Virus record (IMG/VR): IMGVR_UViG_3300048913_000259
Coordinates: 1-58,072 of that record
Reading direction: 5' to 3' (one strand)
Length of the DNA stretch: 58,072 bases
DNA from: a virus
The stretch's first letter is position 1. Each line of letters opens with the position of its first letter. This document shows positions 4,487-46,668 of the stretch, piece by piece. The notes below the pieces were generated by a model that saw nothing but the letters and a program-made list of their open reading frames with translations, was not told where the DNA came from and made no database searches. A program made the position numbers and the translations under genes.

Positions 4487-4900
4487 TCAAACTTCCTTGA
4501 TGTGTATTCCGTGCACCGTCGCCATCAGGTGCTTCTTGTTCCGGTAGCTGGCCAGCTTGCGCGTCGGCTCGCTCTTGGCGTCCTCGACTACCAGCTGGCC
4601 GTTCTCGATGTAGGTGAAGTCGGCGTAGTAGCGCAGCGCGGCCTTCTTCTTGGCCTCGCCGGCCAGGTGCACGGCCGGCGCCAGGATGTAACGCACCTGG
4701 CGTTTCAGGTCCTGGATCACGCCGGCCGCGGCCAGCTGCTCGAGCTCGCGCCACCTGGTGGCTTCCTTGCGGCTGTCGAACAGCTGGCCATCCTGGTCGA
4801 CCTTCACGTTGTTGAATTTCGATCGCTTCGCCGGCGCCGCGGCGCGCTTGGCCTGCGCGGCCAGGTGCGCCTTCAGGATGCGATCGCCCCAGCGGGTCAT
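4487..4900 (-). CDS. DUF1064-like protein (137 aa)
   Basis: Track ORF 4487..5293 trimmed to MTRWGDRILKAHL. The KFNNVKVDQDGQLFDSRKEATRWRELEQLAAAGVIQDLKRQ pattern is typical of DUF1064. ATGA overlap with the upstream gene. Confidence 0.55.
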   Translation of the reverse strand: MTRWGDRILKAHLAAQAKRAAAPAKRSKFNNVKVDQDGQLFDSRKEATRWRELEQLAAAGVIQDLKRQVRYILAPAVHLAGEAKKKAALRYYADFTYIENGQLVVEDAKSEPTRKLASYRNKKHLMATVHGIHIKEV

Positions 4901-5219: not shown

Positions 5220-6506
5220 TTAGCCGACCGGGTTATGGCCTGGCGGCTTCGGTGCAGCGGCACCCGGGTCCGGCCGGCGCAGCGGTGCATCAAAAGCGGC
5301 GATGCGCAGGGACAGGATGCTCGAGTAGCTGGACATCAGGGAAAGCTGGTCATCCAGGCGGCGCAATTCTGCACCGTCGATGCGCTTGGCGAACGGCGAA
5401 GCCACGAAGGCGCGCAGCTTCTCGATCTTCTCGTCCAGCTCCCACTTCTCCACGAAGACACGCACCTGGTGCGGCTCGTAGCCGTCCGCCTCGAGCTGCT
5501 TAACGGCGTTGGCGCGCTCGAGCTCGGCGGTCGACACAGTGGGCGCTTCGGCCAGCGTGCGGCCCAGCTGGCTCGCCAGCACGTAGCCCTCGAATTCCCA
5601 CAGCTTTTCACGCGCCAGGCGGGTCGCGGTGGCGATCGCGTACTGGCGGCCCAGCTCGGCGTCGAAGTTCTCGGGGCTGACGGTCGCTTCGTGCCCGATC
5701 GCCACCACGAAGCCACCAGGCAGGCGCGCGGTTGCGACGGTGCTGGTGGTGCCCGGGATGCGCGCGGTTTCGTAGGTCAGGCTGGCCACCAGGATGTTGA
5801 TGCGTTCCTCGGACACGCTCGGGCCCTTGGTCGGCGCCGGCGTGGCCTTGGCCAGCAGCTGGCCCAGCTTGGCCTGTTGCGCCTGGTCGATCGACGTGGC
5901 CGGGATCGACGGCAGCGCCATCGACGGGTGCACCTGGCTGGCGGCGATCGTGTCGGACAGGACCGGCACCTGGTCGCGGTCCAGCACCACGTCGAGCACT
6001 TCCAGGATGATCCAGTCATCGGCCTGTGCGTCGGTTCCACTCGGCGCCCACGTACTCACGCGGCCGTCTGCGCCCTTCAGGGCCATGTAGGCGTTGTACG
6101 GTACCGGCTTGTCGCCGAAGTGGGCCTTGGCCAGCCTGGTCTGTGCCGGGTAGGCGTTGGCCGGCACCAGGTACACGAACATGCCTTTGCCGTTCCAGCC
6201 CTTGCGCGCGATCGCCTTGCCCAGCTTCAGGGCCTCCATCGCCAGGCCGAACGGCACGCCATCGGTGCGGCGGTACGCGGCCTCAAATTGCTCCTTCGGG
6301 CTCCACGACACGTAGCCGGCATAGCCGGGCACGTTGGGCTTGCCGCCGTCCTGGTACTCGACCAGGTAGCCGTCGTCGGCCGGGTTCTCGTCGGCCGGCA
6401 CGGTCCAGCCGCGCAAAGTGTTGTAGTGCAGCCGGGTCATAGGCTGGGCGTGGACGATCTTGGTGCCGATGAATTTCATGGGTATCTTCGCTCCGGTGTA
6501 TTTCAT
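5220..6506 (-). CDS. Three-part fusion protein: N-terminal small phage domain, DUF2829 (Tad2-like) domain, N4-Gp49/Sf6-gp66-like domain, plus a C-terminal helical tail (428 aa)
   Basis: The DUF2829 signature is FGLAMEALKLGKAIARKGWNGKGMFVYL...YMALKGADGRVSTWAPSGTDAQADDWIILE. The later segment TSTVATARLPGGFVVAIGHEATVSPENFDAELGRQYAIATATRLAREKLWEFEGYVL matches the Gp49-family pattern. Confidence 0.65.
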   Translation of the reverse strand: MKYTGAKIPMKFIGTKIVHAQPMTRLHYNTLRGWTVPADENPADDGYLVEYQDGGKPNVPGYAGYVSWSPKEQFEAAYRRTDGVPFGLAMEALKLGKAIARKGWNGKGMFVYLVPANAYPAQTRLAKAHFGDKPVPYNAYMALKGADGRVSTWAPSGTDAQADDWIILEVLDVVLDRDQVPVLSDTIAASQVHPSMALPSIPATSIDQAQQAKLGQLLAKATPAPTKGPSVSEERINILVASLTYETARIPGTTSTVATARLPGGFVVAIGHEATVSPENFDAELGRQYAIATATRLAREKLWEFEGYVLASQLGRTLAEAPTVSTAELERANAVKQLEADGYEPHQVRVFVEKWELDEKIEKLRAFVASPFAKRIDGAELRRLDDQLSLMSSYSSILSLRIAAFDAPLRRPDPGAAAPKPPGHNPVG

Positions 6507-6510: not shown

Positions 6511-7047
6511 TCAGTTCGGCAGGATGATGCCGGCGGTGGGCGCCTCGAGGCCGTCCGCTTCGGGCGCCTGCTCGGCCGGCTCGGTTTCGATCAGCGATTG
6601 CAGGATGAAGTCAGCGATGCGGTCGTAGTCCTCGCGGGTGCGGGTCGTTTCTTCGCCGGCCAGGCCTTCGGCCAGCTCGAAGGCGTGCATGCCTTCGTTG
6701 ATGCGCTCGAATCGCTCCGGATCGGTGGCGGCCAGGCCGGCGAACTCGGCCAGGGCGCGGTAACGCATGGCGTCGGTCGGCAGGCCGCGCACCTTGCGCA
6801 CCAGGTCGACGTGCTCGCCGTGCAGGGCCTCGGCGTAGGCGTGCGACAGGACGTGTCCAGGGTCGAACAGGCCGCCCGGCAGGATCGTGTGCATGCTCAG
6901 TTCCTGGTCCTTGCTCTCGCTGCTGCCGATCAGGATTACCACGTCGGAAGCGGCCAGGCGCTCGAGGAAGTCCGCCGGCAGCTGGCCAGGGGTGTCGCTC
7001 TTGACGATGCGGCTGTTATCGGGGGTCTTGATTTCATGGTCTTGCAT
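6511..7047 (-). CDS. Acidic hypothetical protein (178 aa)
   Basis: Track ORF 6511..7425 trimmed to MQDHEIKTPDNS, with an AAGGAGA SD. I counted about 34 D+E against about 15 K+R. Confidence 0.65.
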   Translation of the reverse strand: MQDHEIKTPDNSRIVKSDTPGQLPADFLERLAASDVVILIGSSESKDQELSMHTILPGGLFDPGHVLSHAYAEALHGEHVDLVRKVRGLPTDAMRYRALAEFAGLAATDPERFERINEGMHAFELAEGLAGEETTRTREDYDRIADFILQSLIETEPAEQAPEADGLEAPTAGIILPN

Positions 7048-7079: not shown

Positions 7080-8294
7080 TTATGCGGCTTTGTCGGCCGT
7101 GTTGGCGGCGGCCAGGCCGGCCAGGGCCAGGTTGCCGGTTTGCTTCAGCTTGGCCAGCTGCTCGCGCATTTCCTGCTTGCGGGCGTCCAGCTGCTCGGGC
7201 GTCAGCTGCACGCCTTCGGGCACGGTCGGCGGGATGTACGGGCGCTCGAGCTTCTCGGGGATCGGCGTCATGGTGTAGTCGCGGGCCTGGTCGGTCGGCA
7301 TATCCACCTCGCCCAGCGCGACACGGATGCGCAGCACGAAAGCCTTCTGTCCTTCGCCCTGGCGCGGGGTCAGCGGCGGGTCCAGCATCAGGCCGGCGGC
7401 CTTCATGCTGTCCGGATCGGCCCACCAGTTCGGCGGCAGCTTCGGCGCCGGCGCGGTGTACGGGCGCACCTCATCGAGCCAGCGGCCAGCACGCAACCAG
7501 GTCGCCGGGTGCGGGATGAATTGGCCGTCATCCTTGCGCCAGTCGGCGCCGTCCTTCTGCTTCTCGATCGCGTTCAGGATCAAGGCCTGCAACACGGTGT
7601 CGTTGTCGATCTTCAGCTTGGTCCAGGCCTTGTGTGCGTCGGCCTTACCCTGGCGGCGCGGATAGGCGGCCCAAAACTGGTCGAACGGTTTCACCTTCTC
7701 GGGTTCAGGCTCGCCAGGATCGTCTTCACCGCCCTCGCCGGCAGCGCCAGCTGACGAAGGGGTTAAGGTTTTAGGTTTACTCTCCTTCTCCCTCTCCTTC
7801 TTCTTCTTAGGGTGTTTCGTGGCGTTACCTGGCGTTACATGCGTTTCACCGTTGCCACCTTGACCACCATCGCCACCAGCTGCGCCGGCATCGCCTAAGC
7901 CCTTGTTTTGTTGGGCTTCTTTCTCGGCCTTCTTCCTGGCGCGCATGCGCTGCACGCGCTCGGTGCTCGAGCCAGGTGCTTCATTTCGTTCACGCTTTCC
8001 TTGCCGATCTTCCCACTTCGTTACGTTGCCATCTTCGTCCAGCAGTTTCCGCCGTTTCATGGCGTTACATACCGTTTCAGGGTCCGGCAGCTGCAAGGTA
8101 TAGGCCATCAGCTCGAGGTCCAGGCCTTCCATGCTGCCGCGGGGTTCGTTCTTCGAGGCGTGCTCGAGCACGTAGGCCCAGGCGCCCACGATGCAGGCCA
8201 CAGGCAGCTTGCAATCCTCGGCCACCATGCGGAACTTCATATCTGCCGCGGTGCCGCCCCACCACTTGAACCACGGCATACGATCGCCAGCCAT
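7080..8294 (-). CDS. Putative replication initiation / replisome-organiser protein (404 aa)
   Basis: N-terminal MPWFKWWGGTAADMKFRMVAEDCKLP, a central K/E-rich linker, and C-terminal FDQFWAAYPRRQGKADAHKAWTKL...FIPHPATWLRAGRWLDE. This pattern is common in phage replication organisers. Confidence 0.45.
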   Translation of the reverse strand: MAGDRMPWFKWWGGTAADMKFRMVAEDCKLPVACIVGAWAYVLEHASKNEPRGSMEGLDLELMAYTLQLPDPETVCNAMKRRKLLDEDGNVTKWEDRQGKRERNEAPGSSTERVQRMRARKKAEKEAQQNKGLGDAGAAGGDGGQGGNGETHVTPGNATKHPKKKKEREKESKPKTLTPSSAGAAGEGGEDDPGEPEPEKVKPFDQFWAAYPRRQGKADAHKAWTKLKIDNDTVLQALILNAIEKQKDGADWRKDDGQFIPHPATWLRAGRWLDEVRPYTAPAPKLPPNWWADPDSMKAAGLMLDPPLTPRQGEGQKAFVLRIRVALGEVDMPTDQARDYTMTPIPEKLERPYIPPTVPEGVQLTPEQLDARKQEMREQLAKLKQTGNLALAGLAAANTADKAA

Positions 8295-8740: not shown

Positions 8741-9229
8741 TTACAGTGCCACACTCGGGCAAGCTGGGACAGGTTTGCCCGCGGCCAGCAGCAACGAAAT
8801 ACGGACGGGAAGCCACAGCACGAAGCCGGCGTCCCACAGCGCGAACTTCTCGGCCCGGGTGTAACGCATGCCCTGGTCCAGCTCGTTATGGCAGGCCCGG
8901 CAGGCCGGCAACGTGTAGTAGTCGTAGGCCTTGATGCCCTTCCCCTTGCCGTGCGCGGCCTGGTTGCTGTGCGCGGGGTCGTGCGCCTGGCCGGTGCAGA
9001 TTCCAGGAATGCGGAGATAGCACAGCTGGCCCTTGCAGAGCTTGGCCTCGCCGGTCGCCGGCCGCGGGTTGCTGTTGGTCTTGCTGCGCGATCGGATCGG
9101 CGCGGCCTGGCGGGCCAGCTGAAGCAAGCCACCAGGTTCGGGCAGCTTGCGCTTGAAGCTGGTCCTGGCCAGGTCCTTCGTGCCCGGCTTCAGGCCGGTC
9201 TTGCGTTGTAACGGTGCGTTGCGTTTCAC
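8741..9229 (-). CDS. DUF1364 (YbcO)-like Cys/His protein, putative nuclease (162 aa)
   Basis: CKGQLCYLRIPGICTGQAHDPAHSNQAAHGKGKGIKAYDYYTLPACRACHNELD. The GTG start overlaps the upstream stop as GTGA. Confidence 0.5.
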   Translation of the reverse strand: MKRNAPLQRKTGLKPGTKDLARTSFKRKLPEPGGLLQLARQAAPIRSRSKTNSNPRPATGEAKLCKGQLCYLRIPGICTGQAHDPAHSNQAAHGKGKGIKAYDYYTLPACRACHNELDQGMRYTRAEKFALWDAGFVLWLPVRISLLLAAGKPVPACPSVAL

Positions 9230-9921: not shown

Positions 9922-10006
9922 AGTTAAACCTCCCTTAGTTGTGGATTGAGCCGCGATGGTATCACAGCCGTTGCAAGATCGTGCGGAAAAATAGCGCAGA
10001 AAGTTA

Positions 10007-10036
10007 TTGCAGAACAATCACAGATTCGGATAGCAT
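10007..10036 (+). promoter_or_regulatory. Candidate rightward promoter: TTGCAG, 18-nt spacer, TAGCAT, in the divergent control region
   Basis: TTGCAG at 10007..10012 lies within TTATTGCAG. TAGCAT is at 10031..10036, 31 nt upstream of the erf start. Confidence 0.35.
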
Positions 10037-10067
10037 TACGGCTCAACTCAACGGAAAGGAAGCAACC

Positions 10068-10964
10068 ATGTCGACAGACACGAAGCAGCAAGAGCTGGTG
10101 ATGCAGCCGGCGCCAGCTGCGGCGCCGATCGTGGCCGCGGCCCACCAGGAAAGCGCCGGTATGCAGCTGCTGCAAAAGGCGATCGAGCGCGGCGCCGGCG
10201 TCGATGAGCTGGACAAGCTCATTACCCTGGCCGACCGGCTGCGCGCGATCGCTGCACAACAGGCCTTTACCGCGGCAATGGTCGAGTTCAAGAAAAACCC
10301 GCCGACGATCGAGAAGACCAGGGGCGCGTCGGTGAGCTCGAAGCGCGAAGGTGCCAAGGATGCGAACTACAGCTACAAGTACGCGAACCTGGCCGACGTC
10401 TGCAATGCGATCGTGCGCCAGCTGGCCGCCCTCGGCATCACGCACAAGCACACCTTCAACCAGGACGGCAGCGGCGTCACCATCAAGTGCACGCTGACGC
10501 ACCTGATGGGGCACAGCGAAAGCGCGCAGCTGACGGCCCACGGCGATACCAGCGGCGGCAAGAACGGCCTGCAAGGGATCGGCTCGACCATCACGTTCCT
10601 CGAGCGTTACACGCTGCTGGGCGTGTGCGGCCTGGCGCTGGATGACGAATACGACGACGACGGCGCCAGCGGGATCACGGAGGCCGAGCGCGGCGAGCTG
10701 CAAAAGGAAGCGGCAGCGATGCGTCAGCGCGGCCAGCGCCAGAGCCCAGCACAGACCGCAGGCCGCGATCGCAAGGCGCCGCCGCCCGAGGACCTGCTCG
10801 AGCAAGCGCGCAAGGCGGCCGACCACGGCCATACGCATTTCGGCAAATACTGGCGCGAGCTGACGGAGGCCCAGCGCGGTCAGCTGATGCCGGAAATGAA
10901 TAACCTGACGGAGCGCGCCAGCGCCGCGTCGGCCCAGCTGGCCGCGGAATCGGGCAGCAAATAA
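10068..10964 (+). CDS. erf: ERF-family single-strand annealing protein
   Basis: Track ORF trimmed to MSTDTKQQELV, with an AAAGGAAG SD. The ERF-like core is YSYKYANLADVCNAIVRQLAALGITHKHTF...GIGSTITFLERYTLLGVCGL. Confidence 0.75.
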   Translation: MSTDTKQQELVMQPAPAAAPIVAAAHQESAGMQLLQKAIERGAGVDELDKLITLADRLRAIAAQQAFTAAMVEFKKNPPTIEKTRGASVSSKREGAKDANYSYKYANLADVCNAIVRQLAALGITHKHTFNQDGSGVTIKCTLTHLMGHSESAQLTAHGDTSGGKNGLQGIGSTITFLERYTLLGVCGLALDDEYDDDGASGITEAERGELQKEAAAMRQRGQRQSPAQTAGRDRKAPPPEDLLEQARKAADHGHTHFGKYWRELTEAQRGQLMPEMNNLTERASAASAQLAAESGSK

Positions 10965-11584
10965 TGGCCGTCCGCTTCATCGACTGTGTGCAGGGTTCGC
11001 CCGAATGGTTCAAGGCCAGGGCGGGCCATGCGACGGCCAGCCGGTTCGCCGCGATCATGGGCACCAAGGAAGCGCGGAACCGCTATATGTGGGAGCTGGT
11101 GGCCGAGCGCCTGACAGGCGTGACCAGGCGCGACAGCGGCGGCCAGGCGAAGGAATGGGGCCACGACGCCGAGAAGATCGCGCGCGAGCTCTACATGGAG
11201 CGCACCGGCAACATCGTGCGCCAGGTCGGTTTCGCGCAGATGCTGCGGCCCAAGTGGGTCGGCTGCTCGAGCGACGGCCTGGTGATGGGCCAGCCTATCG
11301 GCATTGAGATCAAATCGCCGTTTGACTCGAGCGTGCACGCCGAAACGCTGGGCCTGGGCATGCCCGACCTGCACCACTGGCAGACACAGGGCAACCTGTG
11401 GGTGCTCGAGCTCGAGGAACTGCACTTCTGTTCGTTCGATCCGAGCTTCCCGGTACCGCATGACCTGTACATCCAGCAAATCAAACGCCGCGAGAGTGAC
11501 ATCAAAGAATTGCAGCACCAGGTAAAGCTGTTCCTGGCTGAAGTGAATACAGCGCAGCAAGACATCCAATGCACCAACAACTAA
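10964..11584 (+). CDS. YqaJ-like (lambda-Exo family) recombination exonuclease
   Basis: QGSPEWFKARAGHATASRF, SSDGLV, and EIKSP (PD-(D/E)XK). TAATG overlap with erf. Confidence 0.75.
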   Translation: MAVRFIDCVQGSPEWFKARAGHATASRFAAIMGTKEARNRYMWELVAERLTGVTRRDSGGQAKEWGHDAEKIARELYMERTGNIVRQVGFAQMLRPKWVGCSSDGLVMGQPIGIEIKSPFDSSVHAETLGLGMPDLHHWQTQGNLWVLELEELHFCSFDPSFPVPHDLYIQQIKRRESDIKELQHQVKLFLAEVNTAQQDIQCTNN

Positions 11585-15114: not shown

Positions 15115-18100
15115 TTAGGCTGCTGACTTGGCTTTCACCTCCTGCACCTTCTCGTTGAACCGTTGCATCAGCTTACGCTGTTGGAGCTCGTTCTCCTTGA
15201 TCCGGTCGCGGCTGGCGCCCTTCTCCATGAGCTCGCTTTTGCGCTTGCGCAGCTCGGCGATGTCGCGCTCGACGGCCGCGCCCATTTCGGCAAGGCGCGC
15301 CTCCGGATGTTCCGCCAGGAATTCGCGCGGGTTGGCGTGATCCTTCTGGCGGCCCTTCAGCTCGTCGCCCATGCCGTTCAGCTCCTTCAGGTTCTCGTAG
15401 AACTTGGTCGACGCGGCCGATTTGTCATCGGCCTGGCCGTAGAAGCGGCCGGCCAGCGGCACCTTGTGCGCCGGCAGTTCCTCGCCCGTCACCAGGCTGG
15501 CGCCGGTCTGCCAGGCTTTCAGGGCCTCGCGGCCCACGCCGCCGGTCAGCTGGCCAGCCAGGTAATCCACCTGGTCGGGCGTCGGGCTGAACAGGCCGGC
15601 CTGGTACTTGTTGCCGCCGGTGATCGCGTTCAGGGCATAGGAAACGCCTTTGCCGAGGCCGCTGGCGGTGTCCTTCGTCCTGGTAAAGCCCGGGGTCGGG
15701 TGTAGGCCGCTGCGGTCCTCGCGCGCGATCGGCTTGCCGGTCCAATCCTTGTTGATGGCCAGGTCAACAATCGGGTCGGCCACGGTCGGCGTCATGACCT
15801 GCACCAGGTTGCCGTTGCCGATCGGGTTGAAGGTGTCCAGCAGCGCGCCGGCGACGTTGGCCAGGTGCTTGCCGATCTTCTTGCCGCCACCGATGCCGAA
15901 CTCGGTCACGGTGCGGCCGATGGTCGGCAAGAACGAATAGCCCAGCGGGTACGGGATCGTCAGGAAGTCCTTCTTGCCCGTCACCAGGCCAAGCGGAATG
16001 ACGAAGTTCTTGGCCTTGACGAATTCCGGCGGGTTGTCGTCGTCGTAGCCGGCCGCCAGCAGCATGAAGGCTTGCAGCACGCCCAGCAGCATGCCGCCGG
16101 CGACGATCTTTTTACCGGCCGGGCCGGCCAGGGTTTCGCCCATGCGCGCGATGCCCTGCGTTGCCGCGTTGAAGAAAGCGAACAACGAATTGACCTGGGA
16201 ACCGATCGCGCCCTTACGGTTGAAGTTGACGGTCAGGTTCTTGGCCAGGCTGGCCGCCTGCTGGTTGCTCATGCCGTTGGCCTTGGCGGTCTTGTAGGCC
16301 GCCAGGCGCGTCACGTTCTCGAGTGCTTCGTTGTAGTCGCTCAACCAGTCCAGCACGGCGCGGCCGGCCTTCTCGATCTGCCCGGCCTGCATCTTGCGCA
16401 GCTCCTTCGCCAGCTCGCGCCCGCGGTCTTCGCTGGTGCTGAACATGGCCCGGTAGCCGGTGATGCCGCCCTCGCGCTGGAACTCCGACCACAGGGCCGC
16501 GTCAGCGCCGGCCAGCTGCTCGAGGCGGAAGCCCTGGCGCGCAGCTGCACCGAACAGGCGCCCGGCTTCCTTGGCGAAAGCGGCCTGTTGGCCAGCGATC
16601 GGCGTGGATTCCAGGTTGACGGCGCCCTCTCCGATGTCGCGGGTGAAGTTGACGATGCCGAACACCGGGTTGTATTGCGTGTTCACGCTCGCAAACCAGC
16701 GCGTGGCCATGCCCATGATGTTCAGGAAGCGGTTGAGGCCATCGTTGCCGAGGTTCTTCAGCGACAGGGCCATGCGCATCGCGCGCTCGTTCTTTTCGTT
16801 GAAGAAAATGAAGCGGTCTTCACCGTTGACGCGCACGGCCACCACGTTCGGCGCATTGCGCAGTACCGGGTTCACGCGGCTGATAACCATGCCGGTCTGC
16901 CGGTCGATCTGGCGCTGTTTCGGCTCGTCAATGATCGCCTGCACCAGGGCCGGCGACAGGCCCATGTTGGCCAGCTCGGCCATCAGCGCCTGCGGGTTCT
17001 TCTGCGGGTTGACCGGCTTCCAGAACTCCGGGTTAGGCGCTTGCAGGGCCAGGCCGTACAGCGCCAGGTCCAGGCGGTTCTTCTCGCCGCGCACAATCGC
17101 ACGCTCGCGCGCCATCGCCACGTTCGCCAGGATGTCGACCACGGCGCGCTTCGAGCCCATGCGGGCCTTGCTGGCCGATCCGCGCACGCTGAAGCCGCTG
17201 CCGGTACCGTTGCCCTTCAGCGGGCTATCCATATCCTCACGCATCAGCGGCACATAGTGCTGATAGGTGCGGTTCCAGGTGTCGATCGTGTCCTGTTTTT
17301 CCAGGCCGTAGTCGACCAGGGCGCGCTGGGTGCCGGCAATGATCGCATCGACACGCGCGGCCAGGGCGCCGTAAGCCTGGCGCTGTGCCGGCGACAGGCC
17401 GGCCAGGTAGGCGCGGGCGTCGGCCGTCGACACGCCGGCCAGGCCGTCCGGGTTGCCCTGGTTGATGCTGGCCAGGCGGTCGTTCGCTTCCTCCGCGTGC
17501 CGCATGTGCAAGAATTCCTCGAGCTGTTCCATGCTCACGCCGCGGGCCTGCATATCGGTCAGCAGCGGCCGGAGCTCGTCCTCGAGGAACGATTTGAAGC
17601 CGGTGGCCGCGCGGCCGTGAAACAGTTCTTCCTGCAAGTACGGGTCCCAGCGGTCCGCCAGCTGGCCGTTCTGCTCGCGGATCGCCTGCACCACGCGCTT
17701 CATATCGACGTGCTTATCCTGAAGCGTCTGGATGATGTTGTCCTGCATGGTCATGCCGGGCTCCGTCCAGGTCGGCGCCACGCTCGAGGCGCGGGCATAC
17801 ATTTCGTCCGGTCCTACTTCGAGCTCGCCACCGCGGCGCGCCAGGTTCTTGTAGGCCTCGCTGGCGCGGTCCCAAATTGCCCGGCCCTGCGCCTTGGCCT
17901 GCTCGCTCATGTTGGCCACGCCGAAGCCCATCATCATGTCCAGGCTATCCATCGCCCAGCGCGGCTCGAGGTCCAACAGGTGCGCCGTCTTACCGTTGCT
18001 CTTGAGCCAGTGCTCGGCCTCGGTCATTACCTGGTCGAAGCGGCGGCGCGCGGCCATCGTCAGCGGCGACGTGTTGGCCGCGGCCGTGTCGTCGTTGGCG

Positions 18101-21100
18101 GCGCTGCGCATGGCCTGGCCGCGGCGGCCGTCCTGGTACTGGTTGATGGCGCGCATGCGCGCGAAGTCGGCGCGATCGCCGCCCATCGCCTCGAGCACGT
18201 CGCCCGAAGCGTACAGGGCAGCGTCGAGCCAGCTGGGCGCCGTTCCCGATTCGCGAAGCCCGAATAAGCTGGTGCGAACCCAATCCTTGAACCGCTGCCA
18301 CATGGTTTTGCCTTCGTACCGCTTGCCGGCCAGGTAGGCCTGCAATACCGGATCGGTCAGCGATCGAACGAAGAACTCGTCCGGGTTGCCGCGGGCCTCG
18401 GCGATGGCCAGCTCGAGGTCGCTGTTGGCGAACTTCTCGCCGATCGTCAGCTGGCGGAACTCGTTCCACAGGCCTTCAAACTGCTCGAGCGCCTTGGCCG
18501 CTGCCGGCGCCGACAGGCCCAGCAGGGCGTCGTTCTCGCGCGCCAGGCCGACCGACAGCGAACGGTAGCGCGCCGCGATCGCGACGTGCATGGCTTCGTG
18601 CAGCACGGTTTCGTAGGTCAGGCCGGTGCGGCCCTCGGCTGTGAACAGTTGCATGTGCAGCATCGGCACCAGGCTGACGACGCCGTGCACGTTCATGCGG
18701 CGGGTGTCGTCCACCGTCAGCATCAGCGTGCCCTTGGTCGGCAGCAGGTTCGCCACCTGAAGCGCCAGGTTGCGCACTTCCTTCGGCCCGGTCAGGCTCA
18801 TCGCCTTCAGGGCCTTGCGCAGCGCCTCGAGGCCGTTCAGGCTGGTGGTGCCGCCTGCCTGGCCGTCGCGTAGCAGCTTCTCGATCGCCGGCGCCACGCG
18901 CTGGCCCAGCACGGCGGCCGGCAGCGCCTTCGTCTGCCCCAGCTTGACGTCGGCCTTGGCCGCCGGCGCCATCGCGGCGGCAGCAGCTGCGGCCAGCAGC
19001 TGGCGGCGGCCCGGGTTGAACTTCGAGAACATTTCGTTGCCGCTGTTCTCGATGTACTTGACCACGCTGGACGGCGTGACCAGGGCATCGCGCTGCACCT
19101 CGAGCCAGTTGGCCAGGCCTGCCGCACCTGGTGCGTCCTGGGTGCGTACCCATTCCAGCAGCTTGTCGGCCTGGAACATGCCGCGGTGGTCGGCGATTTC
19201 CTCCATGTGATCCAGCAGCGTCGACGGGATGCCAAGATCGCCGGCCAGCGAATTCTGCTCTGCCAGGCCTGCGCTCACTTCGTCCAGCTTGCCGGCCTCG
19301 GCCATGAAGTCGGCGCGCGCCTCGGCGGTCTTGAACAGGAACCCGCGTTTGGCGTTGCCGCCGGCATAGGTGCTGTACCGGCCGCCGTGCTGCTTGGCGA
19401 TCGCCAGCACGGCCTTGTAGGCGTCGGTGCTGGTGCGGTTCAGCATCGCGGCGCCGAACTGCTTGACGCCGGTTTGCGTGTGGTCGAACTCGAATTGTGC
19501 GAAGTAGCGTTCTGCGCCGGTCGCGCCAGGCTCGGCCGTCCTGGCCGGCTTGGTCGACCTGGTGGGCGTCGGCTTCGCTTCCTCGATCGCGACATCCTCG
19601 CCGGCGCTGGGGTTGGTGCGGCCCGGCAGCGTCACGTTCTCGAGCGCGTCGAACAGGCCTTCAACGTCCTCGATGTGGGTGTAGTCGCGGTGCATCGGTA
19701 CCGGCGCCATTTCCTCATCGGCCAGCTTGTCGAGCACAACGATGCGCGTCATGGCGCCGGTACCGGCGCGGCCGAACGTCGCGGACGGCAGCAGGATGTG
19801 CGCCACCAGGTGCAGGTCCTTCGGGGCGTCGTCGCCATAGAGGAACTTATCGAAGCGCTTGTCAGCGTCCGGCCCGGTCGGCAGCAGCGCCACGATCCGG
19901 CCGCCCTCGTTCAGGTGCTTGTATGCCTTGGCCAGGTGCGGCGTCGACAGCGAGCCACCTTTGCCGAAGGGCGGATTCATCACGATGGCGTCGTACTTGT
20001 TGACCAGGTGCAGGTCCTCGAACTTCGATTGCACGAACTTGCCAGGGCCTTCGATGGCCAGGCGGGTCTTCGTGATAAGCGCGGTTTCCGGCTCAACGAT
20101 CGTCTTGGCCGACTGTGCCGGGAACCAGCGCGCGATCGCGCCATGCCCTGCGCTCGGCTCGAGCACGCTCTCGCCCGTCCGGATGTCCGCCCATTCCACC
20201 ATCTTCAGGCCGACCGGCTCGGGGGTGGCGAAGTAGTCCTTGCCCTCGGCCGCCTTGGTGCTGCTGTTGCGCTTGAGCTGGCCGTAGTAGAACGATTTCG
20301 CGCGGTCCCATTCGGTCAGCAGCTTGGCGTTCTGGCGATCGCGGGCCTTGCCGCCCTTGCCGTCGTCGTCGCTGACAGGGTGCGGGCCGGCGTCCTCGTA
20401 GGCCTCGATGATGGATTCCTTCAGGCCGCGGGCCTGTTCGCCCATCGCCAGCGCCTCGGCGATGTCGGCGCGCTCGGCGATCGTCTGCGCGAAGGTCCAG
20501 CGTTCCCACATGGTGCCGGTCGACACGTAGCGCATCGGGGCGTCCGTCACCTGGCCGGTGCGGTAGCTGCGGCCCTCGAGCTGGATCAGCGCGGTGGGCT
20601 TGGCCGGCATGCCGACGTTGACCTGCACGCGCATGTAGCGGCCGGTGGTGTCGTGCAGGCTGATGCCCTCGCGGCCCTTGTCGGCTTGCAGGATCAACAG
20701 CGGGTTATCGAAGTTGTCGGCGTTGAACAGGCGCTTGTTGTCGGCCAGCTGCTTGTCCGCCACGTCGCCGTTGTGCACCAGGGCGTTCGGGTAGGCGCCG
20801 GTCAGGATCTGAAGCGCGCTCTGCGTCGGGAACTTCAGGTTCACCAGGTCACGGCGCTCGGCCTTGAACTTGTCGGCCAGCTCGGCCAGGTCGATTTCCT
20901 TGTAGGTGTTGCCGTCCCATTCGCCGTGTGTGCCGTTGATGCCCTGCATGGTGAACGGGTTGAAGGCGCCGCCCTTCTTGTAGTCGTGGATGACGATGAC
21001 CTTTCGGCCGCGGTCCAGGTGCTCCTGGATCATCGGCAGCGATTCCTTGGCCTTGATCGCCTCGAGCAAGTAGCGGCGCGCCAGGTAGCTGAATTGCTTC

Positions 21101-24100
21101 ATCAGCGGCTGGTACAGGTGCTTGTATTCCGGGTGCTCGCGGACGTACTCGAGGCCTTCGTCAATCTTGGTACCCAGCGCGGACGGGATCATGACGAATT
21201 TGCGGTCATAGTCCGCTTCGACGTCGAGCATGCGGCCGGACAGGGCGCCCTCCTTCTTCAGCCATTCGTTGAACTGGCGGGCCATCAGGCCCTGGTTCAC
21301 GTTGGCGTCCGGCTCGGTCAGCTTGTGGTAGCGGATACGGTAGCCGAAGTGCTGGACGAAGAAATGCGCGCGGCCGTCCTGGTTGCTGTTGCCGATCCGG
21401 CCGTCTGCCGGGTATTCAAACAGGTAGCCCTCGGCCCAATCCACGGCCTTGATGTAGGCGAACGGGGTGGCCGACAGGAACACGGCTTTGGGGCGCGCCA
21501 GGTTGGAGCTGGCCACGGCAGCGAATTCCTCGCGCTGTGGTTCCTCGCGCTTGCGCAGCTGGTCCCACAGCTTTTTGGCCTGCTCGCTGTCCTTGTTGGG
21601 TACCGCGGCCAGCTGGTCGAAGATGTCGCGGTTGACCATGCGGCTGTAGCGTGCGAAGCCTTCCGGGTGGCGGGTCAGGGCGCGCAGCGTTTGCAGCGCG
21701 TCGGTCATTTTGCCGTCCTTGCTGGCCATGAGGTAGTGCGCCTCATCGGGCAGAACGAAGTCCCAAGTACGATCAGCCAGCGTAGCGTTGTCGCCGAAGT
21801 TGGCGTAGGTGGTGATGACCATGCCCTTGCCGGCGTCGGTGGTGCTGTCGAGCGCGGTGATGTTCAGGCCGAGGTTCTTGCCGCTGTCGATCCAGTCCTG
21901 GGCAATCTCATTGTTCGGCACCACGATGATGCCGTTACCTTTGCCCTGGCGCTCGAAGCGTTTGGCGATGCCGAGGCCGGTGAAGGTCTTGCCGGTGCCG
22001 GTGCCGTTGGTGAAGACCACGCCCGGCTTCTTGTCGGCCTGGGCGAAGCGGGTTTCTGCGAAGTGCACGTCGTCGCGCTGCGGCGGCAGCAGGAACGGTA
22101 ACGTGGCGTCGATGTTGGCGCGGTCGCCCGGCACCACATCGACGGCTTCAGCGGCCAGCTGCTCGAGCCGCTTCTCGTCTAGCGATAGACGCGCTCCAAG
22201 AGCTGTAGCAGGTTCCCCGATTGCGTCGGATTGAGATTTCGCTCCCGCGTTCCCACCGTCGCGGCCTCCTGCGGTGTCTCGAGGTTCGGCAGTACTTGCG
22301 CCAGGTCCGCGCCCTCCGTCGACGCCAGGTAGGTCGCGATCGCCCTGCGCTCCACCAGTAGCGGCATCACGTCCAGGTACGCCAGCGCGGTCGGCCGATC
22401 CAGTCCCTGCTTCATCAGGTCCTGCACCAGGTGCCCGTGTTCTTCCGCCCGATCGTGGTCGGACATCGAAAACATCCGGCTCAGTTTCTCGTTCTTCATC
22501 CGGCCGGTTGCCTGGATCGCGTTCAGTATCGTTGCTGGTACCGCTGTCAGCATTGCTCTCTCCGTTGAGTTTGATTTTTCCTGCTTCAAAGTCGTCAATA
22601 TAGCGCAGTACGTAAGGCTCCATCTTGGCCGTGCCTTCCTTACCGTACAGCTTCAGCAGGTCGCGCACGATCGCGCGCATGACAACCTTGATGTCGTGCG
22701 TGGCTTCGCCGAGGTATTCGATGGCCGCGGTGAAGTAGGGCTTCACGCGCTCGTATTTCGATTCCTCGAAGGGCATCACGCCCTGCTTGACCTGGGGCGC
22801 GATGCCCAGCGCCTCGCCGATGCCGCCCAGCGCCGCGGCGTAGCCGATTGCCGTGTTCTTCACGGCGTCGACGGCGGCCTGGCCGGCGGTGCGGTCATCC
22901 TTCACCCATTCGCCGGCCTTCTTGCGGTAGCCCAGCTCGTCGCGCATGACGGCGTTGACTTCGCCGCGCAGGTCCTTGCGGTGCGCCGCGATGTGCTCGG
23001 CCACCTGGGGCGCGATCGTGCCGGCCTTCTTCAGCGACTGGTAGACATCCGGGATTTTGCCCAGCTTGGCGATCGGCGCCACCAGGGCGCGCTGGATCGG
23101 GTCATCCGATCGCATCCAGTAGGCGTGCGCGTCTTCCTCGCGCTCCTGCTTGGTGGTCTTGATGCCCGTTTCGCGCGGCGTCACTTCCCACTTCAGGCCG
23201 GTGTGCTTGTTCTTCGCGTAGGCCTCGAGCATGGCCAGCTTCTCGCTGGTGCGGCTGTCGCCGTTGGCGTCCTTGAAATAGATTTCGCCGGTCGAGCTCA
23301 CGCGCTCGATGGTCATGGCCTTGCCGCTGGTGAGGTAGCCGACATTGCCGTTGAACGTCATGGTGATGGTGTCGCCCACCTTGGCGCCCAGCACTTCCTG
23401 CATGCGCTGCTGCGCCGCGCGCTGCTTGTTGACCGTCTTGGCGCCCTTGCTCTTGGCCTGCTGCTGCTCGAGGTTGCCCTCTTTGCCGTCCCACAAGATG
23501 CCGAAGTATTCCGGCGACAGCATGGCATCGCCGTCGCGGTTGTAGAAGTCGTAGGCGTAATCGAAGCTCTTGCCGGCCTTCTTCGCGTCGGCGATCTGCT
23601 CGAGCGCGCGGTTTTCCAGCCTGGCCAGCACGGAGTCGGGGCCGTTCAGCAGGCCCTCGATGCTGTTGTTGTTCCGCACCTGAAGGCGAATCGCGTCCAG
23701 GGCGTGCTTCGTGAAGCGGCCGGCCGGCAGGGTGGCCAGGTCCTTCATCGCGGCCAGGCGCTCCTTCTCGATCCGCTTGCGCTCGTCGGCCGTCTTGGCC
23801 GATTTCTTCGCTTTCTTGGCGCGCTCGATGGCCAGCATGGCGTTCAGGCGGCCGGCTTCCTGGTCCGGGGTGGCGAACGTGTTGTTGGCGATCGTCTTGG
23901 CCGGCTTGCGCTGCTGCTTGGCCAGCTGCGCCTTCTCGGCCTCGAGGCCTTCCGGCGCCGGCGCGGCCGGCTCGTCGTTCAGGCCCATCGCGCCGGCTTC
24001 TTCCTCGAGGATGGAATTGAACAGGGCGCTCCGATCGCTGCCCGGCTCGTTCAGGCCCATCGCTTCCGCTTCTTCCTCGATCATGGCGTGGAACATTTCG

Positions 24101-27100
24101 GACAGGTCGCCGACCGGCTTGGCTTCCATTTCCTCGATCGCCAGGGCGGTTTCCTGGCCAGCCAGGTCCGGCAGCTGGTTCGGCAGCTGCTCGGTGCTCG
24201 AGCTCTGCACCTGGGTGTCGTCGGTCGCGTTGGCGCCCAGCTGGCGCAAGTACTCGCCCAGCTGGCCACGCTGCTCGCCGATGCCGCCGCTGACGGCGTT
24301 CACGGCCGCGTTCTGGCCGATAAATCCGGCCTGGCGCAGGCGCTGGATGTAGGTCTGCGCCAGGTCGCGGTACAGCTCGCCGCCGGCGATGAACACCTGG
24401 TTGAAGTCCTTGCCCTTGAAGGCGTCGACGTCCAGGCCCTTGTCGATCAGCTGGCGCTGGCGCGCCTTGTCCATCGGGCGCTCATAGCTGTCCAGCATGG
24501 TGTCGCCGTGCACAAGGCCATGCTCGGCCGAGAGAATCCACACGTCAGGGCGCACGCCCTCGGTCGGCATCCACTTGCGCAGCACGTCGAACATGACGCC
24601 CTTGTACAGGTCGACGGCCTTGTGCCGGCCTTCCAGCTTGGCGCCGGAACAGGCGATCAGCAGCAGCGGGCGCGCGTTGTCCGCGTTGTACTGGTGCACG
24701 CGCGGCTGCACGATCTTGGCCAGCTCATGCGACAGGAAGGCGCTGCGGCCCTCTGCCTCGTTCAGCGGCTCGCCCAGCGAACCGATCGACACGCGCGCCA
24801 GTTTGCCGTCCTGCTTGTGGCCAGGTGTCTCGATGCGCACGGTGACGTTATCGCCGTCGATGGATTCGATGCGGGCATTGGCGCCGATCGTGTACTGCAT
24901 CCACTGTTCGCCCTCGATGCTGGCGACGGCCGGCAGGCTGGCCAGCATGCCCGGCTTCCAGTACTCGCGGGCCTCTTGCAGGCGCTTCGCCTCGGCTTCG
25001 CGCTGGCGGTCCTGCTCGGCGATCGCGTCCTGGAGCTCGCGCTCCTTCCTGGTCAATTTCCCGGTTTCGGTGCCTTTTGTTGCACTTTTTGCCGGTTTCG
25101 TTTCAGGTTCCGGTGCTTTTGATTCACTTTTCAGCTCTTTCAATGCAGCATCGGCCTCGGCCTCGGCGCCGTCGTTGCCCATCGCTTCATCGCGCGCGCG
25201 CTGGTTGCCGATCCGCCAGGCCATCAGTTCTTCGTCGTCCAGGTTGAACGGCGGCGCCATCTTGCCCGCCTTGCCGGCCTGGTAGCCGGCGGTGGCGGCG
25301 CGGTCGATCGCGGCATCATCGACGGGTGCCTGGTTGTCGAAAAGACTGTCCTGGCCGAATACGGCCGACTCGGCCGACTGGCCCAGCTGGAAGTTATCGG
25401 CGCTGTCCTCGATGCGCGCCTTGGTCTGCTTGGCGTCGTCTTCGCGCTTGCGCTGCTGCTCGAGGCGGTCGCGCTCGGCCTGGCGGGCCTTGGCCGCGGT
25501 TTCCTCGGCGTCCTGGCGCGCCACCACGTCGGCGGCGCTGTAGCTGGTCAGGAGCTCGTCTGTTCCTTCGCTCTCAGTTGCAGCTCGGCCAGCACCTTCC
25601 GGCGCATTGCCGGCGGCATTTCCATCAGCTTCGCCTTGATCGCTTCGCGCGCTTCCTGCTTTTTGGCTTCCAAAGATTGCATCGAGTTCTTCCTCAGTAA
25701 GGTCGTTCATGGGGCGGCCACCGTCCAGCTGGATGTCGTCCAGCTGCGCGTCGGCCAGTTCGTCGGCGGTGATGAGGTCAGCGTAGTTCTCGATCAGCGC
25801 CTGGTCTTCAACGGATTCGGCGCCGATCGCCTCGCGGCGGTCCTCGCGCGCCTGGTGTGCTGCTACCACTTCGTCATACAGCTGGCCGTAGTCCTTGCCG
25901 GTGGTGTCGATGCCCAAGCTTTCGGCCTCGGCCGCCAGCTGGCCGTGGGCTGCGGCTTCCATCTGGCTGTCGATCGCGGCCGGCTGGCGAATCACTTCCT
26001 TGTTGGCCAGGGCGCGCTGGATCATGCTGGCCAGCTTGCGCGTGCCGCCGGTGTCTTCGTCGCTGTCGATGTCGTGCTGGGTGATGAAGCCTTCTTCCTC
26101 TGCCAGCAATGCGAGCTCGTCCAGGCGCTTGCCGGTCTTCCGGATGACCGGGCCGTAACCTGGTACCGGCGGATTGCCCTTCTGGCCAGGCTCTACGCCC
26201 AAGTCCGCGCGATCGGCCGGCGAGATTCCATGATTGGCCAGGAAGGCCAGGAACGGGTTGCTCGAGCGCAGGCGCTCGCGCAGGCGCTCGGCCTGGCGGC
26301 GGGCTTCGGCCGCGCGCACGGCCGGGTCGACCACGCCAGTGCCCAGCGTGACCTGGGCGCTGGTGTCCACGCCCGGGTGGCGCTTGGTCTTGATGCCCAG
26401 CGCCAGGGTCGCGGCTTCCTCGTTCCGGTTCAGGTGCTTGCGGTCGATCGGCTTGACCGGCTTGCCCTGGCGCTCGAGCTTCGCATTGCGCTGCTCGGCC
26501 TTGGCCACCTGGTAGCGGCGCGCGGCCAGGCCGTCGAGCGCGTTGACGATCTCCTTCAGCTTGCGCTCGAGCTGCTGCGCTTCGTGCGGCGCGTTGCTGT
26601 GCGCCTCGCCCGGCTTGTAGCCCAGCTCGGCCAGCTTCGGCGCGATTTCGTTCCACTTCTTCACGGCCGCGGCGACGATCGGCGCCGGCAGGGCGGCGGC
26701 GGTGTTCGTCACCTTGGCCATGCCTTCCGGGGTCATGGGCACATGCTCGGCCGGCTGCACCTGGCCGTTTTCGCGCGCATGGTCGGCGATCGCCTGGCGT
26801 GCCTTGTCCTCGCGGAAAGCTACCTTTTCTTCGTCCAGCTGGCCGCGGCGTGCTTCGTCGGCCAGGCCGGTTTCGATCGCCTTGGCCATGCCGTGCACGC
26901 CGGCGGTGCGCAGGTCGCCCAGCAGCTTGTCGATGCGCGGCGCGAACGGGCTGGCGTGCCAGGGGGTGTTATCGCCCTCGATCAGCGCGCGCAGCTGCTT
27001 CAAGCGTGCTTGCTGGTCGCGGTAGCCGTTCGATCCAGGCTTATACCGGGATTCGCCCATCCATTCGACGTGCTTGCGCGCTTCCTTGAGGCTGCTGCTG

Positions 27101-42100: not shown

Positions 42101-43075
42101 CGTATGGAACTGCTGCGCGATCGCGGCCAGGCCTTCCTTCGCGAGTAGGGCATTGGCTGCTGCCTGGCCGGCGCTGGTCAAGGCGCTCGAGGCGCTGCTC
42201 GCTGCGGCCGTCGCGCTGGCGCTGGCGTTGCTGGCCGAGGTCGCGGCCTGGCTGGCGCTGGTTGCGGCATTGCCGGCCGAGGTGTTAGCGGCCGTCGCGC
42301 TGCCGGCTGCGGCGCCGGCGCTGGTGTTGGCTGCGGTCGCGCTGCCGGCTGCTGCCTGCGCGCTGGTATTGGCCGCGGTGGCGCTGCCGCTGGCGTTGGT
42401 CACAGCGGTGGCCAGGTTGGCGGCCGACGTCGCGGCGGACTGTGCGCTGCCCGAGGCCTGGCCGGCGCTGGTGCTGGCATTGCTGGCCGATTGCGCGGCG
42501 GCGCCGGCGGACTGGCCCGCGTTGTAGGCGGCCGTGTTGGCGTCGTTCCTTGCTTGCAGGGCGGTGCCGGCATAGCCCGAGGCGTTGCCGGACGAAGCGG
42601 CAGCAGCTGCGGCCGAGTTGGCCGCGGAGACAGCACTAGCCGCGGCGGCCGTTACCTGGGCGTTGGCCAGCGGCGGCAGGCGGAAGGTGTTGGAGGCGGC
42701 GACGTAGACCAGGGTGATAGGCGAAGCGCCCACCAGGTCGCCGGCCTGCGCGGCCGTGCCGTCCTGGCGCTTGATCGCGATGGCGCCCAGCGCGTTGACG
42801 TTCAGGGTGCAGGCGCCGGTGTTGTCGGCGCCCGGCAGCATCTTCACCTCGAGGCCGTCCGCATAGGCCGTGATGGCCGCGGCCAGGTCGACCGCGTAGG
42901 CATTGGCCGGGCCTTTGTTCACGGCGTAGTTGACGGTGCCGGACTTCAGCGCCAGCTCGGACGGCAGCTTGTCGAAGGCGGCGTCAACGGACTGGTCGAT
43001 GGTGTTGATGTCGCCGGCGCGCGCCTTCGTGCCCGGCGCCAGGTCGACCGGCGAGGCATAGTATTGATTCGTCAT
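39110..43075 (-). CDS. Large tail fibre / tailspike protein (1,321 aa)
   Basis: N-terminal fibre-anchor-like region, Ala/Ser-rich 14-aa repeats, and three CBM-like modules ending in FDNVSVK / DNISLKP-type strands. Confidence 0.7.
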   Translation of the reverse strand: MTNQYYASPVDLAPGTKARAGDINTIDQSVDAAFDKLPSELALKSGTVNYAVNKGPANAYAVDLAAAITAYADGLEVKMLPGADNTGACTLNVNALGAIAIKRQDGTAAQAGDLVGASPITLVYVAASNTFRLPPLANAQVTAAAASAVSAANSAAAAAASSGNASGYAGTALQARNDANTAAYNAGQSAGAAAQSASNASTSAGQASGSAQSAATSAANLATAVTNASGSATAANTSAQAAAGSATAANTSAGAAAGSATAANTSAGNAATSASQAATSASNASASATAAASSASSALTSAGQAAANALLAKEGLAAIAQQFHTGYVVDMFLYDTAKDSDGGAWRKRCKATTWENEALVPGKWLGQFGSTAAAVAAGGLVGDYFQYTGDNAFYQITQTSPATAVPNIYRGNTREFPALALIVAETGRIIIYDATQPTLPMWMVFTNKAAWNDSLLIGSTISCITALNGKLIVGESSNSQGVMVINFVADNAVSYTSTSTYGGVDNAGLSLRNTTGHTFASGTSAAGVPSIVHNTVNDVAAIVLADAPAEPATGLPMPTIAIATNGGVSVLKHDGTIVNITGQLQANNSVGFTKDRRLATTGQYQDQVRVYDIPAATITLDQQKEQYGAGVASIAITTGGACFTIGDDMYSLGAGLFRLKRNPATPVKGMVAAITNAFNSGYQVGDSRGAWLADIVAETLAEFPELVTNGTFNTDTTGWYGTNSPTLAVSASGVTVTKPTGTDVTLAQTINTTPGKTYQIQWDVTATSGNYIVGAQDNVGNNLNGTGYIGTVANKLTVQFTATTPTSTVYLQKGGASGSGTTFDNVSVKQTLVTNGNFDSNLNGWTVQAAGASTVTWSAGQARIAPDGTNSALIGQQITGLVPGRAYMLGFTVAGDPVLPVIGTTISNGNVWAPTPQAAGSYTYTFIAPQSSVWISFTRTAAGIVPLMDNISLKPVDLDRSVKSKPLMVNGSLTKAPVATGAQLVSYSGFSAANYLEQTNNTDLDFGTGDFCFLAWVIKAASGAMFILERGHTVNVAGDFSLTTDINNNLGCIYQNVAAVNSTLGIPLNIPSLVGYFRRSGKGYFTVNGVVQNVDTGAASSLTSAGAVFRVGANVPGTNAFVGQIALVRASATAPTDDQVAQIYRDELALFQPGAQCAFDGTALGVAVAAYDDVADLLHVGTSWGRSTFKGLQRVESSATSVGAVKALAGTNGAHITGGTTGARYTQPAITLRDELRRKDDARRALGRIPAPHWFTGDGTATTFTVPIGFDVYAVYRQGLLVREGSSNDYTTAFDGYRWTVTFTSAPPANFNICIMGVRNG
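42281..42406. repeat. 42-bp x3 tandem repeat (coding, GSATAANTSAxAAA)
   Basis: Units read at 42281, 42323 and 42365. Confidence 0.7.
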
Positions 43076-45354: not shown

Positions 45355-46031
45355 GCCATAGGCTCCGGGGTGTCCCATTCGGGCAGATACACGCCTTCCA
45401 TCTGCGCCAGCAGGCGCTGGAATTCGGTCTGTGCTGCGGCAAACACGCCGGCGTCGCCCTCGAATCCGCCGTAGAACATCAGGGCGCGCTGCACGATCGC
45501 GTCATGGAACTTGGCCGCGAAGATCGGCACGTCGTTGGCCGCGGCCAGGGTGATCGGCGCGCGGTACTGCTCGCCGACGATGGTGTAGATGGCGTCCGGG
45601 ATCGGCCACACTTGCAGCGACTGGTCCGGGCGCTCGGTGATGATCGTGGGGCGGCCGGTGACGGTGCGGTTCTGGCCCATGACATAGACGCGCTTGAAGT
45701 CGTCGTAGGGCATGTAGCGCAGCTCCATTTCGTCGGCCACGCCGATCGCCTTGCTGTAGGCGCGCCAGTCGTCGCCGGCGAAATTCCATTCCCCGAACCC
45801 TGCCACGCCAGCCGCGGCGGCGGTGTAGATCGCGCTCGAGGTGTTGGTGTCGAAAGCCACGTCGGCGCGCAAGAATTTCCAGTCGACGTGCTTGTTCTGG
45901 ATGTAGCGATACGCCTTGATGATCCAGTTGACCAGGCGCTGTGCTTCGCCGGTCTGATTGGTGACGGAAACGACAGCGCCGGAAATGCCGGCTTCGCGCG
46001 CCAGGTCCTGGCAGAGCTCGAGGAAGTTCAT
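45351..46031 (-). CDS. Putative head-tail adaptor protein (226 aa)
   Basis: Assigned by position and size in the morphogenesis operon. No motif-level call. Confidence 0.4.
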   Translation of the reverse strand: MNFLELCQDLAREAGISGAVVSVTNQTGEAQRLVNWIIKAYRYIQNKHVDWKFLRADVAFDTNTSSAIYTAAAAGVAGFGEWNFAGDDWRAYSKAIGVADEMELRYMPYDDFKRVYVMGQNRTVTGRPTIITERPDQSLQVWPIPDAIYTIVGEQYRAPITLAAANDVPIFAAKFHDAIVQRALMFYGGFEGDAGVFAAAQTEFQRLLAQMEGVYLPEWDTPEPMA

Positions 46032-46034
46032 GCG

Positions 46035-46571: not shown

Positions 46572-46582
46572 GCTGTGAATCT

Positions 46583-46614: not shown

Positions 46615-46668
46615 AAGGGGTGTTACCAGGTGTTCCCGCTTGCGCGGGATCGGTTCAGGGTCGCCGGC

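Follow-up and report, generated by a model that had tools for sequence, protein, structure and literature searches.

Which immune signals, and how many of them, can a single viral protein be built to capture? This question is raised by the open reading frame (ORF) at 5220..6506 (−) of the IMG/VR virus record IMGVR_UViG_3300048913_000259. The window that we analyzed is the complete viral record of 58,072 bp, which carries direct terminal repeats (exact repeat of 127 bp). A preliminary description, made from the letters of the window, had read the ORF as a 428-amino acid (aa) protein in which a DUF2829 (Tad2-like) domain is accompanied by an N-terminal small phage domain, an N4-Gp49/Sf6-gp66-like domain, and a C-terminal helical region, and had named it a candidate sponge for glycocyclic ADP-ribose (gcADPR), a signal of Thoeris defense. 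We found that the protein is composed of four folded modules, three of which belong to described families of phage sponges (i.e., Tad2, Acb4, and Sequestin), the fourth being a conserved but unnamed N-terminal module, hereafter the N-domain. We consider it quite probable that the product acts as a multivalent sponge, in which one polypeptide would disarm several nucleotide-signaling defense systems.

Four folded modules in one reading frame

Family profiles placed three sponge domains in the ORF. The Tad2 domain takes up residues 82-169 (6000..6263, −), where PF11195 (DUF2829) matched residues 86-167 (E = 5.8e-21) over positions 3-72 of its 73-position profile, scoring 75.3 bits where the cut-off is 25; in the Pfam scan of the whole window, this match reached 78.3 bits. 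The Acb4 domain lies at residues 229-320 (5547..5822, −), where PF13876 (Phage_gp49_66, the "N4 Gp49/Sf6 gp66" family, which is now named Acb4) matched residues 232-313 over positions 2-81 of the 82 in the profile (E = 4.7e-12; 46.7 bits, cut-off 27). It is followed by the helical Sequestin domain at residues 326-405 (5292..5531, −), where PF21825 (crAss001_48) matched residues 344-403 over positions 1-60 of the 61 in the profile (E = 2.5e-14; 53.4 bits, cut-off 24.8). The N-domain, a conserved beta/alpha module of ~70 aa, precedes Tad2 at residues 10-81 (6264..6479, −), and its region is matched by PHROG 872 and 9467. More specifically, PHROG 872 spans residues 10-169 as a single unit (E = 1.6e-57), and PHROG 3934 spans residues 224-406. 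Against family profiles, each of the four modules scored E values of 1e-27 to 1e-42.

An AlphaFold2 monomer model, built with 42 homologues, likewise contained four folded modules (residues 10-81, 82-170, 229-320, and 326-405), in which the 10-residue means of the predicted local distance difference test (pLDDT) were mostly 85-98. A disordered linker of 59 residues (residues 170-228; 5823..5999, −), with a pLDDT of <50 over residues 175-206 and 217-228, joins the half made of the N-domain and Tad2 (N-Tad2) to the half made of Acb4 and Sequestin (Acb4-Sequestin). The chain ends in a Pro/Ala-rich disordered tail (residues 406-428; 5223..5291, −) of low pLDDT (block means of 58 and 52 over residues 411-428), which is present in the closest homologues only. 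As the overall predicted template modeling score was low (0.42), the modules appear to be arranged like beads on a string.

Much of the preliminary description was recovered by these searches, namely, the DUF2829 domain that it had placed at approximately residues 85-170, the N-terminal small phage domain, and the N4-Gp49/Sf6-gp66-like domain. The C-terminal region is all-helical, as had been described, but it is a named sponge family rather than a mere tail. The ORF is likewise real: it is open for 428 codons plus stop, and its GC content at third codon positions (GC3) is uniformly high (0.88), as in real genes of this 65% GC genome. Its product is more likely shorter than was first read, the true start being probably the second ATG, at 6479, which would give a protein of 419 aa (MKFIGTK...). 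We placed the start there because three observations agree: the public gene call for this ORF (P0002) uses ATG 6479 (419 aa), the N termini of homologues read M..YIGTK, and a GGAG lies 11 nucleotides (nt) upstream of ATG 6479, whereas ATG 6506 is without such a site.

Signals that the sponge modules may sequester

In a sequence search of solved structures, the Tad2 domain was closest to ModTad2 (9EIB/8V3E; E ~7e-24, ~51% identity), followed by HgmTad2/AcrIIA7 (1.3e-14), SPO1 Tad2 (1.6e-13), and SptTad2 (5.6e-13). Consistently, the predicted model (block-mean pLDDT of 85-94 over this domain) has the Tad2 fold, in which an N-terminal helix precedes an antiparallel beta sheet. Foldseek ranked 9eib (ModTad2 with histidine-ADP-ribose [His-ADPR]) first, with E = 3.5e-9, 51% identity, and a template modeling (TM) score of 0.80, and its matches also included 8kbi, 8wjd, and 8sme, so that the Tad2-like structure expected at the outset was borne out. 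The residues that contact gcADPR in HgmTad2, i.e., W21/N22/G23 and W87/S90/T92/D93 (bioRxiv 10.1101/2023.11.15.567273), align with W104/N105/G106 and W153/S156/T158/D159 of the window protein. The insertion that builds the cyclic-dinucleotide pocket of HgmTad2 is short here, as it is in ModTad2. ModTad2 binds His-ADPR, the signal of type II Thoeris, and takes up cUMP/cCMP in a second pocket; it does not bind the type I signal. Because ModTad2 is the nearest solved Tad2, the ligand of the domain is not necessarily gcADPR, and the idea of a gcADPR sponge stands as to the family and is in doubt as to the signal. Our best guess for the ligand is His-ADPR, because ModTad2 is the nearest characterized relative and Sequestin, in the same chain, covers 3' cyclic ADP-ribose (3'cADPR).

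The same matches bring up a different function. AcrIIA7, which is HgmTad2, is a DUF2829 protein, the sequence similarity extends to 8kbi/9kzr, and N-Tad2 homologues are annotated "anti-CRISPR protein" in phages Huey, Louie, and phi1_146050. It is nevertheless highly improbable that the window protein is an anti-CRISPR of the AcrIIA7 type: according to the literature, Cas9 binding has never been demonstrated, DUF2829 proteins acting instead by sequestering the signals of Thoeris and of the cyclic-oligonucleotide-based antiphage signaling system (CBASS), and both partner domains in the present chain are nucleotide sponges.

The second sponge module has the succession of elements expected of the SPO1 Acb4 fold (a helix at residues 233-241, strands at 244-249, 255-261, and 267-274, and a helix at 283-320). 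Foldseek matched it to SPO1 Acb4 with cyclic GMP-AMP (cGAMP) (9e4w; E = 8e-3, probability of 1.0, TM score of 0.54-0.59), and by sequence it matched gp48 of phage N4 (E = 4e-12). When the Acb4-Sequestin half was compared with PDB sequences by phmmer, only noise was returned, and 9e4w was not reached. PF13876 is the anti-CBASS family Acb4, whose member from SPO1 is a tetramer that sequesters 3'3'-cGAMP and related signals, with K36, F48, E49, Y57, N63, T70, and K81 as its cGAMP contacts (bioRxiv 10.1101/2024.12.30.630793).

The third module is all-helical in the model, with pLDDT >90, and it retains the family-invariant residues E353, Q387, and R401. Their spacing (34 and 14) resembles that of the SequestinA contacts E12/Q47/R61 (35 and 14), a correspondence drawn by spacing alone. 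PF21825 is Sequestin, an antiparallel-dimer sponge for 3'cADPR, which came to light because no other family is fused to Tad2 (60 cases) and Acb4 (91 cases) as often; of 13 Sequestins, 10 inhibited Thoeris I, and binding of 3'cADPR was shown for SequestinA (bioRxiv 10.1101/2025.07.12.664507). A natural protein with the same two modules as the C-terminal half, gp59 of Pseudomonas phage Ab09, forms tetramers with tight binding of gcADPR and weaker binding of cGAMP and 2'3'-cAA, and it also triggers the decoy-based Panoptes system (bioRxiv 10.64898/2026.06.04.730250). The published sponge roles of Acb4 and Sequestin thus support the earlier suggestion that the fusion may combine several signaling-nucleotide-binding activities.

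We infer that such a combined activity would come about as follows. The polypeptide would be made from the leftward replication-gene block of the phage, and its four modules would fold independently, each assembling with its own copies from other chains: Tad2 and Acb4 into tetramers, Sequestin into an antiparallel dimer, and the N-domain probably into a domain-swapped dimer. Most likely, the result would be a closed homotetramer with inter-subunit pockets that sequester immune signals. Sequestin is predicted to take the type I Thoeris signal 3'cADPR, Acb4 the cyclic dinucleotides of CBASS, e.g., 3'3'-cGAMP or cUA, and Tad2 an ADP-ribose-derived signal, for which the type II molecule named above is the candidate.

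Several points weigh against this proposal. Of 84 sponges tested against seven systems, about a quarter inhibited none, and specificity varies within families, which makes the ligand assignments guesses. For Tad2 in particular, 51% identity to ModTad2 does not establish membership in the His-ADPR-binding clade, and R31 and N85 of the HgmTad2 cyclic-dinucleotide pocket are replaced by V114 and T152. Several fused oligomerizing domains might, instead of a closed particle, produce open networks. Finally, the conservation of the N-domain exceeds what would be expected of a mere dimerizer.

The N-domain and its company of sponges

The N-domain is both small and widespread. Its domain-only model had a pLDDT of 94, and in the monomer model it is formed by three to four strands and two helices. 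In a HMMER search of 1.84 billion representatives with residues 10-84 alone, 1,563 clusters were matched at E ≤ 1e-3, of which 852 remained at E ≤ 1e-10. The domain is present in 138 isolate phage records, N4 included, and in prophages of many phyla. No Pfam match at E ≤ 1 and no NCBIfam match was obtained for it.

A relative was found among the sponges themselves. A hidden Markov model built from 61 N-domains matched residues 5-68 of RyR Tad, i.e., gp68 of Pectobacterium phage vB_PatP_CB1 (26 bits, E = 3e-10), and BLASTP of the N-domain against gp68 gave 33% identity (E = 7e-4). On the strength of these sequence matches, the N-domain and the N-terminal domain of RyR Tad are members of one family. 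The motifs K.V.A.PMT, EGYLV.Y, and SWSP..VF are common to that domain and to residues 10-81 of the window protein, whereas the gp68 copy is shorter and divergent, is without the RGW and DGG..N segments, and has a RyR-repeat sponge as its fusion partner in place of Tad2, Acb4, or Sequestin. In the crystal, the N-domain of gp68 is a domain-swapped dimer with a five-stranded sheet, and the ligand lies in the C-terminal domain; the isolated gp68_N fragment had no anti-Thoeris-I activity (bioRxiv 10.64898/2026.06.04.730250).

Structural comparison added little to this relationship. Searching a copy of the PDB that did not hold the gp68 crystal structure, we obtained no match to PDB sequences with the N-domain profile even at E ≤ 10, and none by Foldseek at E ≤ 0.001. 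VIA-align against the PDB gave weak small-barrel matches only, all below the tool's own meaningful level; the best was DUF1653 (3be3, Z = 3.9), with Tudor, chromo, and CarD-like folds at Z ~3. The 6E3C filter used in bioRxiv 10.1101/2025.08.24.671296 points to a resemblance to the oligonucleotide/oligosaccharide-binding (OB) fold of phage L Dec; this fold was absent from the best 50 rows for the N-domain, and a relation to it is neither confirmed nor excluded. We also considered the N-domain as a degenerate copy of Tad2, Acb4, or Sequestin and rejected this, the profile-profile probabilities being <1%.

What the domain does can be approached through its partners. Among the 144 best N-domain clusters, the Pfam families found with it were Tad2 (42), Sequestin (40), Acb4 (21), and Acb2/Tad1 (2), with no others, and it was found on either side of the sponge domains as well as alone, in viral clusters of 67-78 aa. 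Its conservation also exceeds that of its partners: within the same proteins, the median identity to the window protein fell from 69% (N-domain) to 60% (Tad2), 47% (Sequestin), and 36% (Acb4), and for gp49 of N4 the values were 57% (N-domain) and 34% (Tad2). Conservation reaches 90% or more at approximately 28 of its 70 positions, among which aromatic and charged residues are frequent; K16, R32, W34, E50, W68, and K71 are invariant.

We lean slightly toward a dimerizing or assembly role for the N-domain, because the gp68 homologue dimerizes in the crystal and its isolated fragment was without anti-Thoeris-I activity. It is less probable, yet worth keeping in view, that the N-domain is itself an active counter-defense part that binds a ligand or partner, either as a further sponge for another signal or as a binder of a conserved host or defense component; it could also be a device that protects sponge-carrying phages, for example against systems that use decoys, such as Panoptes, and the window protein would then have four activities. 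We keep this role in play because of the conservation of the domain, because of its sponge-only company, and because gp68_N was assayed against one defense system. The same guilt-by-fusion logic uncovered Sequestin, and the shuffling of the N-domain to every position relative to the sponges, together with its occurrence as a small protein of its own, points the same way. Set against it are, besides the behavior of gp68, the location of the gp68 ligand in the other domain and the failure to find a fold relative of the N-domain with a known ligand. With the assembly role retained as the preferred one, the N-domain would hold together copies of a chain in which the other three modules act as sponges.

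Two further observations concern proteins that carry the N-domain. Nine of them (P0109, P0238, P0144, P0152, P0065, P0085, P0031, P0058, and P0063) have C-terminal regions, 70-190 aa in length, for which no match to any of the four modules was obtained; such regions recur in small clusters, and those from the search of representatives are also without a Pfam family. These regions could be undescribed sponge partners. Clustering of the unassigned segments of N-domain proteins returned mostly N-terminal helices of Acb4 and singletons, with no clear new partner family. In three other proteins (P0046, P0057, and P0093), the N-domain and Tad2 are joined to AP2 and HNH_3 in a homing-endonuclease-like architecture, which suggests insertion of mobile elements into sponge genes.

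Origin of the fusion, genome setting, and known systems

To place the ORF among its relatives, we compared the arrangement of the modules in 80 related IMG/VR loci. N-Tad2 stood alone in 45 of them and adjoined Acb4 in 19. In one locus (L012, 3908-5005), N-Tad2 is followed 4 nt later by Acb4-Sequestin, in the same order as in the window; in another (L009, 3812-5069), Acb4-Sequestin comes first and N-Tad2 second; and in a third (L015), N-Tad2 and Acb4 share a single frame. The two-gene arrangements of L012 and L009 are unfused states of the window gene. Because related loci carry the same modules mostly as adjacent separate genes, the window protein is, as judged by this comparison, a fusion of two neighboring genes, one resembling N4 gp49 and the other Ab09 gp59, via the disordered linker.

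The split state with the same gene order in L012 could be taken to mean that the long ORF is an artifact, produced when assembly or a frameshift joined two neighboring genes. We find this scarcely credible, because the fused frame recurs in independent contigs from other sources (P0003, P0004, P0005, P0007, and P0025, which are 82%, 77%, 67%, 47%, and 41% identical, respectively, as well as P0006), because a homologous linker was detected in P0003-P0006, and because the uniformly high GC3 extends across the whole ORF.

The four-module form is rare. Approximately six further clusters had it among the 120 matches listed (5.8 billion proteins), no isolate phage record had it with at least 80% coverage (50,697 records), and it was seen in none of the best 80 loci of the species-representative genome collection. 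This rarity, together with the inactivity of many tested sponges, might mean that only one or two modules are active and that the rest are decaying passengers of a recent gene fusion. Such decay is unlikely given the strong family-profile scores of all four modules, the family-invariant residues and high-confidence folds that they keep, and the retention of the fusion in homologues with as little as 41-47% identity (P0007 and P0025). A multivalent sponge, as proposed above, remains our preferred reading of the whole chain.

The combination of modules is therefore rare, as the preliminary description implied in calling the fusion unusual, but it is not an oddity of kind, since fusion of sponges is a published common theme. 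Nor is Tad2 normally a stand-alone protein, as had been supposed: N-Tad2 is its commonest form in this lineage, and Tad2-Acb4 and Tad2-Sequestin fusions have been published. In the texts on sponge fusions that we consulted, only fusions of two sponges are described, and we found no mention there of a three-sponge form. Each module of the window protein is in a described family and multi-sponge fusion is already known; the protein is the fullest combination seen here. What is new here is the link between the N-domain and the N-terminal domain of RyR Tad, and the comparison of split and fused states.

Replication and recombination genes surround the sponge gene in a long block on the minus strand; this block includes an RNase T-like exonuclease (565-1200), a DUF1064 Holliday-junction-resolvase-like gene (4487-4900), a replication initiator (7080-8294), and a YbcO-like nuclease (8741-9229); an ERF and YqaJ recombination pair lies on the opposite strand at 9939-11584 (+). 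Directly upstream of the sponge gene, at 6511-7047 (−), is a gene for a strongly acidic protein of 178 aa, whose stop is located 4 nt before ATG 6506 and for which no Pfam or PHROG match was found. The two genes may form a small anti-defense cluster. Farther along, approximately a quarter of the genome is taken up by one ORF of 4,825 aa at 15115-29592 (−), in which LPD38, DUF6884, and ResIII helicase domains are combined; its product is a DarB-like "large polyvalent protein". The interval 43072-53855 (−) contains the SU10-like portal and adaptor genes (49883-52294 and 45351-46031, respectively).

A scan of genome contigs with the sponge protein revealed no close prophage, and megablast of the region against the 50,697 phage records gave no match. 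The best genome matches, which cover the protein only partially, were in Burkholderiales (Undibacterium, at 72%, Roseateles, and Xenophilus). As the closest partial protein relatives are in these genomes, a betaproteobacterial host is suggested.

Phage sponges reveal the immune signals that are important in nature, and they have been tools of signal discovery, e.g., ModTad2 for His-ADPR. A natural chain of three sponge families shows the reach of the fusion strategy, provides a compact reagent for testing simultaneous neutralization of Thoeris I, Thoeris II, and CBASS, and documents the fusion of two neighboring genes for which split and fused states are both kept in related viruses. The larger value lies in the N-domain: few modules that accompany sponges are as conserved and as widespread, it is present in the model phage N4, and the only function assigned to it so far is dimerization in one crystal structure. 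If it proves active, the protein has four activities, and the N-domain becomes a beacon for further sponge partners among the ~40 N-domain proteins with unassigned extra regions.

Among known systems, each part of the window protein has a counterpart. Its Tad2 domain shares with ModTad2/MoTad2, from a Myroides odoratus prophage, the fold, the short beta2-beta5 insertion, and the WNG and W..S.TD motifs; ModTad2, however, is a stand-alone protein of ~88 aa, whereas Tad2 is embedded here between the N-domain and the 59-residue linker. The N-Tad2 unit is found with the same order and boundaries in gp49 of phage N4 (L003, NC_008720), which RefSeq labels merely "DUF2829 domain-containing protein", and there, too, an Acb4 gene adjoins, the two genes lying at 1103-1956. 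In contrast to the window protein, N4 encodes its Acb4 (Pfam family "N4 Gp49") separately, in the gene directly upstream, which is gp48 in NC_008720 numbering, and N4 is without Sequestin. Residues 229-405 follow the Acb4-then-Sequestin order, with a short junction, of the Ab09 gp59/YH6 fusion, and isolate-phage Acb4-Sequestin fusions that cover most of this half are 26-33% identical to it; gp59 (147 aa) lacks the Tad2 and N-domain that are present here. Lastly, sponge domains are fused in the Tad2-Acb4 protein of Pasteurella phage Pm86, which blocks both Thoeris I and CBASS I, and in the Tad2-Sequestin protein of Comamonas sp. 26 (bioRxiv 10.1101/2025.07.12.664507). Unlike these two-sponge proteins, the window protein joins three sponge families and the N-domain in one chain.

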